Source: an uncultured Nitrospiraceae bacterium
Lineage (GTDB): Bacteria; Nitrospirota; UBA9217
Direction: 5' to 3'
DNA length: 52,649 nucleotides
Assembly (NCBI GenBank): GCA_964646375.1
Contig: CAZYEF010000001.1
Span: 1 to 52,649 of the forward strand
The number at the start of each line of letters is the position of its first letter. Within the stretch, counting starts at the first letter, position 1. Under the pieces are notes generated by a model. The model had not been told where the DNA came from. It saw nothing but the letters and a program-made list of their open reading frames with translations, and ran no database searches. The position numbers and the translations under genes were made by a program. Positions 22,103-49,618 of this stretch are shown here, in pieces.

Positions 22103-22112
22103 GAGACCATTG

Positions 22113-23501
22113 ATGCCTTTTCACGAAACGTTGATCATAGCTATAGATGCGGTCCTGGCTGTTGTGTCGCTCCATGTGGCAGCCGCTTTGTGGGCGGAAT
22201 ACGCCGGTATGGGGTTTGGGCTGCATGACGGCGATACTGTTCTGAAGTTTCTGGTGTTTGTTGTGATTGTAATCTTTTCTTCTCACCTGATGGATATCTA
22301 CGATTTTGAAAAAAATGTAAAAAAGCGTGAAATATTGATCAATATCATGTTTGGCGCGGTCACATCCTTTTCTTTCTTTGCGCTCCTCTACTATCTGAGG
22401 CCGGATATCATGTTGGGGCGAGGGGTATTATTCATATCGCTTGCATTTTTTGTCTTACTGCAGTTCTGCTGCCACGCGATCATCACCCGAAGTCAGTCAC
22501 GTTTTTCTAAGAACGTTCTAGTCCTGGGAACCGGAACTCTGGCTTCCCAGATAGGCGAGATGGCTGACTCCAACAAAAGAAATTTTTCCCTGGCGGGGTA
22601 TGCTTCCTGCGTCAATGGCAGCATTGCCGTAAATGGAGGGGTAAACGACGGATGCGTGGTCTCTCAGGACCAAATTGTCGGTGTCTCCGATGATCTTCTC
22701 GCCGCGGCGCGCAAGGTCAACGCCGCACTGATTGTTGTTGCGCTTTCCGAGAGGAGGGGGCATTTCCCTCTCAGGGATGTTCTCACATGCAAATTGAATG
22801 GTATTGATATCATGGATGCCCCTTCTTTTTATGAGATTGTACAGGGCAAGCTGATGCTGGAATCAATAACGCCCAGTTGGATAATTTTCTCAAGCGGGTT
22901 CCGCAGAACCACTCTGTTCAGTTTTAGTAAAAGAACCATCGATATCGTCCTGGCAACGATTGGTCTGATAGTGTCTCTCCCGCTTTATCCTTTGATAGCG
23001 CTTGCGATCAAACTTGATTCACCCGGTCCTGTTTTTTTCAGGCAGGAGAGGGTCGGTTACAATGAAAAGTTGTTTGTTCTCTACAAGTTCAGGACCATGC
23101 GGCAGGATGCCGAGGCAGAAACCGGGGCGAAGTGGGCTGAGAAAAACGATCCCCGGATAACCAGGTTCGGCCGCTTTCTGCGAGGCTCCCGTATTGACGA
23201 GCTTCCGCAACTCATCAATGTTATGAAAGGTGAAATGAGTCTTGTCGGGCCTCGTCCGGAGCGCCCTGAATTTGTAGAAAAGCTTAAACAGATCATACCG
23301 TACTATTCGAAGCGACACTTCATCAGTCCCGGGTTGACGGGGTGGGCGCAAGTCAGATACCCATACGGTTCAACTGTTGAAGACGCCGTGGAAAAATTGC
23401 GCTATGATTTATACTATACGAAGAACGTTTGTCCGTTCCTTGATACGCTCATATTCTTTGAAACTATAAAGGTCGTCCTCTTCGGGCGTGGTGGACGTTA
23501 A
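22113..23501 (+). CDS. Polyprenyl-phosphate glycosyl-1-phosphate transferase (bacterial sugar transferase, EpsB-type priming enzyme)
   Basis: N-terminal TM helices, a central Rossmann-like region (VLVLGTGTLASQIG) and a C-terminal Bac_transf block PGPVFFRQERVGYNEKLFVLYKFRTM...DELPQLINVMKGEMSLVGPRPERPEF. Confidence 0.9.
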   Translation: MPFHETLIIAIDAVLAVVSLHVAAALWAEYAGMGFGLHDGDTVLKFLVFVVIVIFSSHLMDIYDFEKNVKKREILINIMFGAVTSFSFFALLYYLRPDIMLGRGVLFISLAFFVLLQFCCHAIITRSQSRFSKNVLVLGTGTLASQIGEMADSNKRNFSLAGYASCVNGSIAVNGGVNDGCVVSQDQIVGVSDDLLAAARKVNAALIVVALSERRGHFPLRDVLTCKLNGIDIMDAPSFYEIVQGKLMLESITPSWIIFSSGFRRTTLFSFSKRTIDIVLATIGLIVSLPLYPLIALAIKLDSPGPVFFRQERVGYNEKLFVLYKFRTMRQDAEAETGAKWAEKNDPRITRFGRFLRGSRIDELPQLINVMKGEMSLVGPRPERPEFVEKLKQIIPYYSKRHFISPGLTGWAQVRYPYGSTVEDAVEKLRYDLYYTKNVCPFLDTLIFFETIKVVLFGRGGR

Positions 23502-44340: not shown

Positions 44341-45663
44341 ATGAATGACTCTGATTTTCCCAAAACAACCGGAAACCTTTCGCCTTCATTTTTTCTCTTT
44401 CTTTTTTATATTGTGGTGTGGTGGCTCCAACTTGGTGAACGACTCGGGAAGAGATTTGGCACAGAAATCCGCCTTGAAGCGGTTGTAGCAGTTGTTTTGC
44501 TTGTTATAACGATATTTGATTCGTTTCGAAAAAAAACAGAAGAAAAGGCAGGCTTTACCCCATATATTGCATCTCTTTTCATTGTAATGATTATTCAGGT
44601 GGTTTTTGCTTGGGATTCTGATAGGGCTTGGGATGTTTTTATTGATAACGTACTGAAGTATTCAGCAATGGGATTGTTTATTGCTAGGTTTGTCCGAAAC
44701 ACTCAACAATTAGGATGGTTGATGTTTGTCTGGTTGTTAGCCTGCTGGAAGGGAACACTTGAAGGCGTCCTGGGTGGCATAACTGGTTCGCTGATATGGG
44801 AAAATCAAGGAATTATGAGGCTAAATGGTGTTGGTCTCTGGGCACACCCCAACTCGTTTTCTGAATTTGCCCTTGGTGCTATACCCTTCTGTTTTTACTT
44901 GTTCCCGTTGGTGACCAGAAAATGGTTGCGCCTGGGTTTGATTTCATTGTTTTGTTTCGCAACTTATGTGGTTGTTTACACCGGTTCGAGGACTGGTTAT
45001 CTTGGCTACATTATTTTGATGATTTTATTTTATTTCCAGTCCCCCAAAACAGTTAAAAAGAAACTCCTTGTTGCTTTTTTGGTTCTGATTCCGTTGACTG
45101 TTGTTTATTTACCAACAGATTATCAAGGGCGGTTTTTGTCTACCTTCAGTGGAAAGGAAAAAGAGGGCGCCTCAAAAGAGTCGCGCCAAAAACTTTACCG
45201 CGAGGGATGGTACGTTTTCAAGCGCCATCCTTTTGGTGTTGGCGTCGGCAATTTCCGGGTAGCTGGCCTTAAATATTTTGACACGCCCATGGACCAGCAT
45301 TGCCTTTACACCGAAGCTCTGACTGAAATTGGAATTCAGGGATTTATAGTATTCATGTTTTTTATGTCAAAAATATATGCCACGCTTGTTAACTTAAAAA
45401 AAGAGTTGTTGGTAATTCTTGGCAAGCTGGAAAGCGCAGCTCCTGATTGCGTGAGCACAATTTATGATGCGCGTCTCACATATGCGGTTCTCCAATCAAC
45501 CCTTGTCTATTTTCTTTTACGGCTGTTTCTGGATATTTTTGGAATGGATCTTTATGGAATATGCTGGTGGTTTGTGGCTGGAATCACATCGTCACTTTTC
45601 TTTATTGTTAAACGCTTTCAGAACAAGATGCTACTTCTAGAAAAGGCACAATTAGTGGAATAA
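44341..45663 (+). CDS. O-antigen/EPS polymerase (Wzy / O-antigen ligase family)
   Basis: 440 aa and polytopic. Wzy_C-like blocks WAHPNSFSEFALG, VYTGSRTGYLGYIILM and a periplasmic loop with HPFGVGVGNF...QHCLYTEALTEIGIQG. Confidence 0.7.
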   Translation: MNDSDFPKTTGNLSPSFFLFLFYIVVWWLQLGERLGKRFGTEIRLEAVVAVVLLVITIFDSFRKKTEEKAGFTPYIASLFIVMIIQVVFAWDSDRAWDVFIDNVLKYSAMGLFIARFVRNTQQLGWLMFVWLLACWKGTLEGVLGGITGSLIWENQGIMRLNGVGLWAHPNSFSEFALGAIPFCFYLFPLVTRKWLRLGLISLFCFATYVVVYTGSRTGYLGYIILMILFYFQSPKTVKKKLLVAFLVLIPLTVVYLPTDYQGRFLSTFSGKEKEGASKESRQKLYREGWYVFKRHPFGVGVGNFRVAGLKYFDTPMDQHCLYTEALTEIGIQGFIVFMFFMSKIYATLVNLKKELLVILGKLESAAPDCVSTIYDARLTYAVLQSTLVYFLLRLFLDIFGMDLYGICWWFVAGITSSLFFIVKRFQNKMLLLEKAQLVE

Positions 45664-45722
45664 TTTCTTTTAGATAAGCCATTGGCTTTGCTGGGATGTT
45701 TATTATATTTAAAGGTAATATT

Positions 45723-46922
45723 ATGAAAATTTTGGTATTCGATGAATGGTTGCCTTGGCCACTTGAAAGCGGAAAGAAAATTAGAAGTTATAATTTGATG
45801 TCCAGGATTGCTAAATATCACCAGATTATTTATCTGGCATATGTTAGATCACCCGACGAGGATTATAAAATTGAAATTTTTAATAACTGGTGTTATAAAG
45901 TGATACCTGTTAATGATGTAAGAAGAGAAAAATGGAAAATTCCTTTTTATTTTGATGTTGTAAAAAATATTTTCTCTAAAATGCCTTTTTCGACACAATA
46001 TCATATAACTGAAGAGTATGTTTGTGCCATAAAAGAAGCTATAGACAGAGAAAAACCAGATTTAGTGCATTGTGAATGGTCTAATTTAGCTCCTTGTTAC
46101 CAGTATTTTCCTAAATTGCCGACTGTAATTTCGTCTCACAATATAGAATCAGATATATGGAAAAGATGGTATGCTGCTTCCAACAATTTATTATACAAAT
46201 TAATTGCAAAGCAGCAAGCAGAACGAATTGAGATATTGGAAAAATTTTGGTACCCTAAAGCGGATGTTTGTATATCTGTGAGTGAACAGGATAAGCAAGT
46301 TATTGAGAGTTATGGTGCTAATGCTGTTGTTGTAGAGAATGGTGTCGATATTGATTATTACAGTAAGTATGAATACAATGGATATGATGAAAATTGTTTG
46401 GTATTCACGGCTTCATTTGACACATTCAGTAATCAGAATGGGGTGGAATATTTTATAAACGAAATATATCCAATAATAAAAAGGAGTAACTCTAAAATTA
46501 AATTGTATTTAGTTGGAAAGGAACCAACACAAAAGATAAAAAAATACGGAGAAAGAGATAGTAGTATTATAATTACTGGGTCAGTTCCAGATGTAAGACC
46601 GTTTATTGCTAAAGCATCTGTTTGTGTTGTGCCGTTAAGAATAGGGGGGGGGAGTCGATTAAAAATACTGGAAGCCTTAGCCATGAAGAAACCTGTTGTT
46701 TCTACCACTATTGGAGCAGAAGGTTTGTCCGTTAATAACGGTATTGATATCTTATTGGCGGATGAACCACATGTCTTTGCGGAAAATGTTCTGAAGGTTC
46801 TTGGTTCTTCGACTGCTAGGGATGCTCAGGTAGATGCTGGTTATTCTCTGGTAAAAAGAAATTATGATTGGAATATATTGGCTGACCTTCACAATAATGT
46901 TTGGTTACGTTTGAAATCATAA
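45723..46922 (+). CDS. Glycosyltransferase, GT-B fold (GT4-like) carrying an internal G9 tract
   Basis: MKILVFDEW N-terminus. PLRIGGGSRLKILEALAMKKPVVSTTIGAEGL. Confidence 0.85.
   Translation: MKILVFDEWLPWPLESGKKIRSYNLMSRIAKYHQIIYLAYVRSPDEDYKIEIFNNWCYKVIPVNDVRREKWKIPFYFDVVKNIFSKMPFSTQYHITEEYVCAIKEAIDREKPDLVHCEWSNLAPCYQYFPKLPTVISSHNIESDIWKRWYAASNNLLYKLIAKQQAERIEILEKFWYPKADVCISVSEQDKQVIESYGANAVVVENGVDIDYYSKYEYNGYDENCLVFTASFDTFSNQNGVEYFINEIYPIIKRSNSKIKLYLVGKEPTQKIKKYGERDSSIIITGSVPDVRPFIAKASVCVVPLRIGGGSRLKILEALAMKKPVVSTTIGAEGLSVNNGIDILLADEPHVFAENVLKVLGSSTARDAQVDAGYSLVKRNYDWNILADLHNNVWLRLKS
46644..46652 (+). repeat. Homopolymeric G9 tract inside the GT gene (codons GGG GGG GGG = Gly-Gly-Gly)
   Basis: Direct read of ...aagaata ggggggggg agtcga.... 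In frame with the 45723 CDS (R-I-G-G-G-S). Confidence 0.95.
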
Positions 46923-46961
46923 ATTTTGATGCGCCATTACATGATCAGGTAGGTGTTGCTT

Positions 46962-47648
46962 ATGGATATCATAAAACTATTGATTTCGTATTTGCCAGTT
47001 CAGTGGCAGTATGAGCTAAAAAGAATTCTTTATAGAAGGCAAATCAAGAAGGGGTTTTTTTTGACACCAGAGCCTGAATATAAATTGCTTTCTCAATTTG
47101 TCATGCCTGGTGATTGGATTATTGATATTGGCGCTAATGTTGGGCATTACACAAAAAAATTTTCGGACTTGGTTGGACCAGAAGGTCGGGTTATTGCTAT
47201 TGAGCCAGTGCCTGCAACGTTTTCAATACTGTCTGCAAACTGTCAGTCGTTTTCCAATGCAAATGTTACTTTATTTAATGTAGCGGCATCTGAAATGTTT
47301 GATGTTGCTGGAATGGAAATTCCTAAATTTAAAACAGGATTGGCAAATTACTATGAAGCACACATTTTGCCCTCTTGTCAAGAAAGTACCTTTAATGTGC
47401 TTACCATCCCATTAGATGCTTTATGTATCAATAGCAGAATTAAATTGGTAAAAATTGACACAGAAGGACATGAAAAAATGGTTTTGAAAGGCATGCGACA
47501 GCTTTTGAAGCAATACCACCCTATACTTATTGTTGAAGCGCCATCTGATGATACGGTGTCATTCTTGTCTGATTTTGGATATGTTTCTGAAAAATTGCCT
47601 GATTCTCCAAATCTTATATTTAAAGTATGTAAGAATATCCAGTTATGA
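46962..47648 (+). CDS. FkbM-family SAM-dependent methyltransferase
   Basis: IIDIGANVGHYT (SAM motif) and VKIDTEGHE (FkbM signature). The ATG at 46962 has a GGTAGGTG SD 6 nt upstream. The GTG at 46953 is the alternative. Confidence 0.85.
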   Translation: MDIIKLLISYLPVQWQYELKRILYRRQIKKGFFLTPEPEYKLLSQFVMPGDWIIDIGANVGHYTKKFSDLVGPEGRVIAIEPVPATFSILSANCQSFSNANVTLFNVAASEMFDVAGMEIPKFKTGLANYYEAHILPSCQESTFNVLTIPLDALCINSRIKLVKIDTEGHEKMVLKGMRQLLKQYHPILIVEAPSDDTVSFLSDFGYVSEKLPDSPNLIFKVCKNIQL

Positions 47649-47803: not shown

Positions 47804-49618
47804 ATGTGCGGAATTAACGGAATAGTTTCTTGGCACCGCGATTCTGGTGTTGTTGTCAATGAAATGAATCGACACTTACATCACCGAGGTCCGGATGATG
47901 ATGGTGTTTTTTCTGCTGCTCCCTTGGCTCTAGGTCATGTTAGATTAAGTATTCTCGACCTGAGTAGCGCCGGTGCACAACCGATGTGCTTTGGTCGCTG
48001 GGTTTTGGTATTTAATGGAGAAATATACAATTTCCAGGCACTGCGTGATACGCTTATTAACTACGGTTACCAATTTACGTCGCGTAGCGACACTGAAGTG
48101 CTTCTGAAAGCTTGGGATTACTGGGGGGAGAAGTGCCTCTGCAGGCTAGAAGGCATGTTTGCGTTTGCCATTTACGATACTGCTGAACGGTTGTTGCATC
48201 TTTGCCGCGACAACTATGGAGTTAAGCCTCTATTCTATAGCCTAACTAACAATGAATTCATTTTTTCTTCAGAATTATCTACCTTGATTCATGCTCAGGC
48301 AACAATGCCTGAGATTGACAGGGATGCAATTGCTTCATATCTGGCTTTGCATTATGTTCCTGCGCCTCAAACTGGGCTGAATAACCTCTATAAGCTACCA
48401 GTTGCACACAGAATGACGGTGAGTTTTGCGGGAAACAAAATTCAGGCATCGGAGCCATATAAATGGGATGATCCTTATAAACCTCAGGACGACCCTGTCG
48501 GTATTTCAGTGGATGCCTTGGATGAAGCCCTGGCACGCAGTGTTAAAAAGCAGATGATCAGTGACGTTCCGGTAGGGGCTTTTTTAAGTGGCGGCGTTGA
48601 TTCAAGCCTGATATGTCATTATGCCAGCCAGGTGCATAACGAGCCCTTGCATACCTTTTCAATCGGCTTCTCCGATGCTGGATGTGAATACGATGAAACT
48701 GCTTATGCCGCAAGAGCAGCAAAGCTTCTGGGCGCGGAACATCATGCCGTATGCGTTGAACTGGGTAGTTTGTCGGATCATATCGATGATATTTTGAACC
48801 GGATGGGTGAATTGAATGCCGATAGTTCCGTTTTCCTGAATCATATTGTTTGTGCAGAAGCACGTAAGCACGTTACGGTTTGTCTGAGCGGGGCTGGTGG
48901 TGACGAATTGTTTGGAGGCTACTACCGTCATCAGGCATTGTTGGCATTGGAACTGCTTATCTATTGCCCGCGCCAATTACTTCGGTTTATATTGAACCTG
49001 TTAACAATTTTTCCTCAAAACAGGGACAATAGGTTTGGCAATTTTGTACGACGTTTGATTCGCTTTCTGGAACAGCGCGAGGGAAATGGCGGCTTGATTA
49101 GTCTTATACGTCAAGATCGAGCTTACCCTCAACAGAGCTGCTTTCTCAGTCAACCACCACCCTCTACACTTCTAAAGGCTCTTGAATATGATTTTCGGCA
49201 TTTTCTCGGAGATAATATTCTTGCCTTCAGTGATAAGATGAGCATGCTGCATGGTCTTGAAGTGCGAGTACCTTTTCTTGATTCCGGTGTCGTCAGGCTT
49301 GCCGAAAGCATGCAGAATCGTCAACGCGTCAGGATTTCCGAGAAAAAGGTGATTCTAAAACAGTTAGCTGTCCGATATTTCCCCAGGGACCTTATCTACC
49401 GAAAGAAGCAGGGTTTCGCTGCTCCTATGGAGGTCTGGCTGAGACAGCTCACAAAGGCCGAGCTGAGAAGGCGTTGCATGGAAGGTCTCGCAACCCAGAT
49501 CCTGCCTGAAAAGGTGATTGATAACCTTATGGAAAATTTTCTTACCCGTAACAGGGATCTTTCGCTTCAGCTTTATTCATTGATTGTAATGAATCAGTGG
49601 CACGCAGCTCTCCATTGA
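47804..49618 (+). CDS. Glutamine-hydrolysing asparagine-synthetase-family amidotransferase (AsnB family; likely EPS/exosortase-locus amidotransferase)
   Basis: Canonical MCGINGIV N-terminus (Cys2 nucleophile). Blocks LSILDLS, LVFNGEIYNF, SDTEVLL and the PP-loop FLSGGVDSS. GC content is visibly higher than the cassette upstream. Confidence 0.9.
   Translation: MCGINGIVSWHRDSGVVVNEMNRHLHHRGPDDDGVFSAAPLALGHVRLSILDLSSAGAQPMCFGRWVLVFNGEIYNFQALRDTLINYGYQFTSRSDTEVLLKAWDYWGEKCLCRLEGMFAFAIYDTAERLLHLCRDNYGVKPLFYSLTNNEFIFSSELSTLIHAQATMPEIDRDAIASYLALHYVPAPQTGLNNLYKLPVAHRMTVSFAGNKIQASEPYKWDDPYKPQDDPVGISVDALDEALARSVKKQMISDVPVGAFLSGGVDSSLICHYASQVHNEPLHTFSIGFSDAGCEYDETAYAARAAKLLGAEHHAVCVELGSLSDHIDDILNRMGELNADSSVFLNHIVCAEARKHVTVCLSGAGGDELFGGYYRHQALLALELLIYCPRQLLRFILNLLTIFPQNRDNRFGNFVRRLIRFLEQREGNGGLISLIRQDRAYPQQSCFLSQPPPSTLLKALEYDFRHFLGDNILAFSDKMSMLHGLEVRVPFLDSGVVRLAESMQNRQRVRISEKKVILKQLAVRYFPRDLIYRKKQGFAAPMEVWLRQLTKAELRRRCMEGLATQILPEKVIDNLMENFLTRNRDLSLQLYSLIVMNQWHAALH

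Follow-up and report, generated by a model that had tools for sequence, protein, structure and literature searches.

Homopolymeric G tracts in surface-glycan genes are best known from host-adapted pathogens. The LOS glycosyltransferase genes lgtA, lgtC and lgtG of Neisseria and Haemophilus are phase-variable through poly-G tracts whose lengths vary between isolates. Campylobacter jejuni is not known to have repair of the MutS/MutL type. Its genomes carry 11-29 poly-G/C tracts each, with nine as the modal length and G6-G8 scarce (PMC3401435), and switching at G9 tracts was measured at 2e-4 to 1.2e-3 per division (PMC3401435); examples are cj1139 with G8 and cj0031 with G9 (Bayliss et al. 2012, PMC3401435). 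Phase-variable status demands high rates in both directions together with reversibility (review PMC11868660).

The stretch of DNA analysed here (52,649 bases, the window) contains a run of nine G inside a glycosyltransferase (GT) gene, which a preliminary description had put forward as a candidate phase-variation switch. The resemblance to C. jejuni contingency genes is close: a surface-glycan gene in a low-GC setting has a G9 within its coding strand, and a one-base slip gives a frameshift and an early stop. As in lgtA, lgtC and lgtG, the homopolymeric G run lies inside a glycosyltransferase reading frame. However, C. jejuni has many tracts and measured switching, whereas the window has one tract in 52.6 kb, known from assembled sequence alone and with no length polymorphism seen; its frequency in the gene family is that expected by chance, and it sits in an invariant catalytic motif. 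The lgt genes act in LOS extension, where truncated glycans are tolerated, whereas the window GT belongs to a Wzy-dependent polymer pathway and shows no variation among five assemblies. The window tract is real, probably incidental and intrinsically slippage-prone, and as a switch of this well-known kind it is unproven.

The glycosyltransferase and its glycine loop

The gene at 45723-46922 (+ strand) encodes a GT4 (GT-B fold) glycosyltransferase of 399 aa, as assigned by Pfam, NCBIfam and an AlphaFold model; an alternative ATG at 45696 would give 408 aa. Its Pfam matches are Glyco_trans_1_4 (9e-26) and Glyco_transf_4 (1.5e-11), and both the N- and C-terminal GT4-type domains are present (PF13439 and PF13692/PF00534). 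The AlphaFold model, built on 70 homologues, has a GT-B fold (pLDDT 93.5, pTM 0.89), and its top PDB fold matches (Foldseek, E down to 7e-17) are GT4 enzymes including MshA, PglA, BshA and PimA. As modelled, the protein has the two Rossmann-like domains of a GT4 / GT-B enzyme.

The G9 tract falls within a conserved block, P304-A318 (PLRIGGGSRLKILEA; 46632-46676, + strand), recognised in the homologue alignment, in an alignment with TreT and in the model. Nine residues of the block (P304, R306, G308, G309, G310, R312, K314, I315 and E317) show no variation across the 70 aligned homologues, and the glycine motif was found in about 110 of 121 database matches of the GT. In the model, the C-terminal Rossmann domain has the GGG in a loop that joins a strand (300-303) to a helix (312-320). 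Among solved structures, only the trehalose synthase TreT (6zj4) gives the GT a significant sequence match; we take its E-GFGLTVS-E to be the EX7E donor-binding motif, and in this alignment its first Glu is matched by G309 and its second by E317. The block P304-A318 thus appears to correspond to the GT4 EX7E donor-binding motif. A canonical EX7E was not found in the C-terminal domain of the GT, where the second Glu is kept (E317) and Gly309 takes the position of the first; judged by sequence comparison, this glycine is a variant of the whole subfamily and no defect of the window gene.

The alignment of 70 homologues, Pfam and the model bear out what the preliminary description said of the setting: an AT-rich polysaccharide cassette, a GT4 enzyme and, within it, a conserved block that contains the tract. 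The same description had the tract ahead of the nucleotide-sugar-binding C-terminal half, which is wrong: the tract begins at residue 308 of 399, and the C-terminal Rossmann domain starts near residue 225.

An XrtA/PEP-CTERM exopolysaccharide locus

The best NCBIfam model for the GT is TIGR03087 (stp1, PEP-CTERM/XrtA system glycosyltransferase). The GT resembles this family in its GT4 architecture and in the motif GGG(S/T)R(L/I)K, and likewise is set in an XrtA/PEP-CTERM locus, alongside PrsT, a priming transferase of TIGR03013 type and an AsnB-type gene. Unlike TIGR03087 proper, it scores under the cut-off (219.2 vs 316.65 bits) and falls in a sister subfamily whose members usually come after a gene of the AsnB type. 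PrsT matches TIGR02917 at 602 bits, above the cut-off, and named relatives of the priming transferase of the locus carry the TIGR03013 annotation; the GT is part of an XrtA/PEP-CTERM exopolysaccharide locus.

Upstream of the GT gene, and in the same conserved module, lies a Wzy-type polymerase gene (44341-45663, + strand; Pfam Wzy_C 9e-16). Directly downstream is an FkbM-family methyltransferase gene (46953-47648, + strand; Pfam Methyltransf_21 9e-19, TIGR01444 2e-27), followed by an AsnB-type amidotransferase gene of the XrtA/PEP-CTERM-associated type (47804-49618, + strand; TIGR03108 1.8e-135, below cut-off; TIGR01536 1.3e-130, above cut-off). No terminator-like site was found between the GT and FkbM genes. 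The FkbM gene is probably co-transcribed with the GT gene, and slips in the latter could possibly have polar effects downstream.

The combination of Wzy, methyltransferase, AsnB-type amidotransferase and GT genes is also present in two relatives (contigs L164 and L174), and two further contigs (L166 and L167) have AsnB then GT. Because the module recurs in relatives, and is kept across phyla, the GT appears from sequence comparison to be a conserved component of XrtA/PEP-CTERM loci and not obviously a strain-specific side-branch enzyme.

Position and local rarity of the tract

The tract claimed at 46644-46652 (+ strand) was confirmed by direct reading. The letters there are GGGGGGGGG, with an A on either side (ATA GGG GGG GGG AGT); the run is in frame with the ORF 45723-46922, and its codons GGG GGG GGG specify Gly308-Gly310, part of VVPLRIGGGSRLKILEA. 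A length of about 7-8 or more within a reading frame or promoter is the usual mark of a contingency locus, and the tract has nine. It is the only G/C run of at least 8 bases in the 52,649-base window, where shorter G/C runs number four at 7 bases and 11 at 6 bases.

The GT gene has 33.6% G+C and 26% GC3, and GGG accounts for two of its 13 Gly codons outside the tract. How conspicuous the run appears depends on the frame of reference. A first-order model predicts ~0.03 G9/C9 runs for the AT-rich cassette alone and ~0.0008 for the GT gene alone, and synonymous-codon shuffling inside the gene gave a run of at least 9 in 1.6% of trials. Dinucleotide shuffles of the whole window contained a mean of 0.58 G9/C9 runs, with at least one in 32/100 shuffles. 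An invariant Gly-Gly-Gly motif makes the DNA always GGN GGN GGN, and this accounts for most of the surprise: the G9 is locally unusual, yet unremarkable for a family whose protein motif imposes that codon pattern.

Effect of one-base slips

Translated in silico, a -1 slip (G8) brings in a TAA stop at 46660-46662 (+ strand) and a 312-aa product ending ...GGGVD, while a +1 slip (G10) leads to a TAA stop at 46733-46735 (+ strand) and a 337-aa product with 27 aberrant residues. Both predicted products are without the SRLKILEA helix, a conserved donor-binding helix, and the final 60-90 residues. In silico, then, a change of one repeat unit switches the product; the truncation foreseen for either slip is borne out by translation, and the on/off logic of one-base slips is sound on paper. 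The further proposal that this would switch one sugar of the repeat unit is unsupported. Tracts of G6 or G12 leave the frame intact, with one Gly lost or gained, respectively, in the invariant motif, and because they alter this Gly count, nine is the sole functional tract length.

Glycine codons among relatives

Genome and metagenome scans, together with exact look-ups of close homologues, gave 149 distinct motif-bearing relatives with DNA, and the expected frequency of G runs was computed from each relative's own Gly codon usage. GGG-GGG-GGG occurs in 1 of the 149, where 1.69 are expected. Only 2 relatives have runs of at least 8 at the motif, where 6.22 would be expected (P(at most 2) = 0.046); mixed Gly codons are commonest, GGC foremost. 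Among these relatives there is no enrichment of long G runs at the motif beyond codon usage; if anything, such runs are mildly avoided. The mixed-codon check proposed for a selected contingency locus thus went against it: 148/149 relatives encode Gly-Gly-Gly with mixed codons, and the single other G9 fits the chance figure. The only other long run at the motif is a G8 (GGG GGG GGA) at L006:3916-3923, in a Zixiibacteriota MAG (JBBTMW010000002.1).

The one other G9 carrier, P0009 (L165:1252-1260, from JGI metagenome 3300010351), is 55% identical to the window GT and has 38% G+C. Besides this metagenome, which is unrelated, it turned up with the same G9 in X6, a third run belonging to the biofilm study that the window comes from, where a 520-nt contig aligns to 46621-46652. 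P0009 falls in a different well-supported clade of the protein tree from the window GT, and mixed codons are present in four sampled members of the window clade (P0003, P0012, P0018 and P0041) and three of the P0009 clade (P0016, P0004 and P0006). Gene-wide, 52% of codons at identical residues are the same in the two genes, with a longest run elsewhere of 8, and local codon identity around the tract is not an outlier. Given the different clades, the mixed-codon relatives in both and this unexceptional local identity, the two G9 runs are taken as independent. Recombination between the two genes was considered and rejected, as the 30/32 nt match upstream of the tract reflects shared AT-rich codon bias. 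That both G9 carriers are low-GC genes is mildly notable. Adjoining the P0009 gene is one with faint HTH_28/DUF1153 Pfam matches; domains of this type are common in IS-element transposases.

Tract length across assemblies

The tract is G9 in all five assemblies compared (the window, Logan contigs of runs X1 and X2, and JGI contigs L162 and L163), which represent two haplotypes; most are from a single study, and each gives just the majority allele, hiding any minority off-variants. Contigs of X1 and X2 run through the tract without an indel, at depths of 10.7 and 28. The second haplotype is marked by a T/C polymorphism at 46234 (+ strand; Ile171Thr), with C in X2, L162 and L163 and T in the window and X1. 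Thus, no tract-length difference was seen between close assemblies, within five assemblies and two haplotypes mostly of one study. The 90%-identity protein cluster has four members, and none is truncated. Among ~15 billion proteins we found none of eight possible G8/G10 products of the window GT and neither of two possible frameshifted products of P0009. A search for length polymorphism was the other check suggested for a contingency locus; the uniform G9 across both haplotypes and the lack of any frameshifted product on record speak against one.

Outside its own population, the nearest relatives of the window GT are only 57% identical. A relative ~96% identical is present in run X7 at depth 2 and does not cover the tract, and the contigs of runs X8-X10 contain nothing of the GT gene.

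Three wastewater RNA-Seq libraries from 2025 (X3, X4 and X5) yielded short contigs that match several cassette genes at 100% identity; the cassette is thus not confined to the biofilm study, and it may be transcribed. Contigs of these RNA runs (X3, X4) cover 46448-46646 and 46658-46820, and so break at the tract. We rejected length heterogeneity as the cause, since a k=31 graph branching on G8/G9/G10 should stop at the 8th or 9th G and not the 3rd; the breaks are also uninformative because these islands are merely 1-2 reads deep.

Origin of the G9 run

We think it probable that the G9 is an incidental product of synonymous drift at an invariant Gly-Gly-Gly, not a selected switch, and that it is held at nine while being prone to slippage. 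The run encodes the functionally required Gly-Gly-Gly of the donor-binding loop in a GT4 enzyme of the XrtA/PEP-CTERM exopolysaccharide module; the motif imposes GGN GGN GGN, and a 9-G run arises as soon as G falls at all three wobble positions. An incidental origin is the most likely because the frequency of 9-G runs in the GT family is about as codon usage predicts. The population would then hold the tract at nine: at 6 or 12 the invariant motif would be one Gly short or have one too many, and no other length gives an active enzyme. At the same time the run would be a slipped-strand hot spot, at which replication throws G8 and G10 null alleles, and reverts them, faster than ordinary mutation does. 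The slippage rate at G9 should accordingly be raised, and rare enzyme-off cells probably exist in the biofilm, such null variants being expected because G9 runs are intrinsically slippage-prone. The window has two glycan loci and many glycosyltransferase genes, yet no second G/C run of at least 8, and evolved tracts are usually found in tolerant segments, whereas this one sits in a catalytic motif. Counted against an incidental origin are the rarity of the run in synonymous shuffles (1.6%) and in the cassette (~0.03 expected), its length (nine being the modal C. jejuni switch length), the typical contingency setting of a GT in a low-GC cassette, the second independent G9 and the RNA contig breaks at the tract. 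As a general caution, families with an invariant Gly-Gly-Gly (or Pro-Pro-Pro, Lys-Lys-Lys or Phe-Phe-Phe) would yield chance 9-base homopolymers in ~1% of members, and such runs need comparison with the codon-usage expectation, and for tract-length polymorphism, before they are labelled contingency loci.

An evolved contingency locus, with G9 kept for reversible G9 <-> G8/G10 switching of the GT and hence of exopolysaccharide structure, seems unlikely. Such switching would be a form of bet-hedging where, for instance, the polysaccharide is recognised by phages or grazers. The tract does have the modal length of proven poly-G switches, which operate at ~1e-4 to 1e-3 per division (PMC3401435). 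An early stop follows from either slip, the GT lies in a low-GC and probably exchangeable polysaccharide cassette, and the run is locally improbable (1.6%), but the family shows no excess of G9 and a depletion of runs of at least 8. Likewise, a second low-GC homologue, found in the same biofilm study, is independently G9 where a rough sum gives ~0.1 expected among 20 low-GC relatives, but close relatives sampled from both clades have mixed codons. Switching also sits poorly with the zero length polymorphism in five assemblies of two haplotypes, with the lack of off-products on record for the window GT or P0009, and with a single long G/C run in a glycan-rich 52.6-kb window. The tract lies 77% into the gene, in an invariant catalytic motif, where in-frame lengthening to tune the rate is impossible, and the GT belongs to a module conserved across phyla. 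Proven switches tend to be side-branch or LOS-extension enzymes; a blocked backbone GT in a Wzy-dependent pathway can trap undecaprenyl-phosphate intermediates, harming the cell. The fuller claim, of a working, selected exopolysaccharide switch in a free-living biofilm/wastewater bacterium, built into the catalytic Gly-Gly-Gly loop and arisen at least twice independently in low-GC copies within one community, as the window gene and as P0009 (L165 and X6), is one we regard as decidedly improbable. A switch here would be another case of a well-known kind in a new setting: it would take contingency-locus biology beyond host-adapted pathogens, into biofilm matrices of the exosortase type, and slipped-strand bet-hedging by an environmental biofilm organism, acting on its matrix polysaccharide, would bear on phage-host dynamics and on wastewater floc structure.

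Two further explanations have very little probability. The GGG triplet might act in translation, either as a rare-codon pause aiding folding of the C-terminal domain or as a ribosomal or transcriptional slippery site yielding a second product. GGG is indeed a minority Gly codon in the GT gene (2/13 outside the tract), and a homopolymer allows tRNAs to re-pair in shifted frames, but G-only slippery heptamers are regarded as poor frameshift sites, the shifted frames end fast in unconserved sequence (2 and 27 extra residues), and 148/149 relatives manage without the triplet; we consider such a role most improbable. That the true tract is shorter, longer or mixed, and G9 an artefact of sequencing or assembly, is the least credible of the explanations. 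Homopolymers are error-prone and the short RNA-run contigs break at the tract, but five assemblies from at least three pipelines (NCBI record, Logan, JGI), with depths of 10.7 and 28, agree on G9, which is also the one length restoring the invariant motif and a full-length conserved protein.

Other observations on the locus

We note some variation in the organization and sequence of the locus. (i) The gene order in relatives (L164:3987-9224, L174:1983-7209, L166 and L167) runs from Wzy through a class I methyltransferase and the AsnB-type gene to the GT, and a CapK-like ligase often lies upstream; the window has the same gene set in a different order, namely Wzy, GT, FkbM methyltransferase, AsnB. 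In L164, a DDE transposase lies ~1.6 kb downstream of the GT. (ii) The TIGR03013-type priming transferase (22110-23501) has best matches 64-76% identical. The named ones are from Desulfuromonadales, Desulfobulbaceae and Geobacteraceae MAGs, the closest of these being Desulfuromonadales and Desulfobulbaceae at 64-74% identity. Either the locus has been exchanged between phyla, or else the Nitrospirota assignment needs checking. (iii) The FkbM gene has a T8 run in codons 35-37 (47055-47062), the same in every assembly compared. The FkbM gene call is shorter in L162; a change in the T8 was rejected as its cause, since the run is identical there and the gene has no SNP, leaving only the gene caller's choice of start. 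(iv) Over 7.2 kb, the window and L162 differ at six positions (43723, 43734, 44033, 46234, 48065 and 48980), all six nonsynonymous: an unassigned 315-aa protein has three, the AsnB-type gene two and the GT one (I171T). Small as these numbers are, they hint that selection on this stretch of the locus is diversifying or relaxed.
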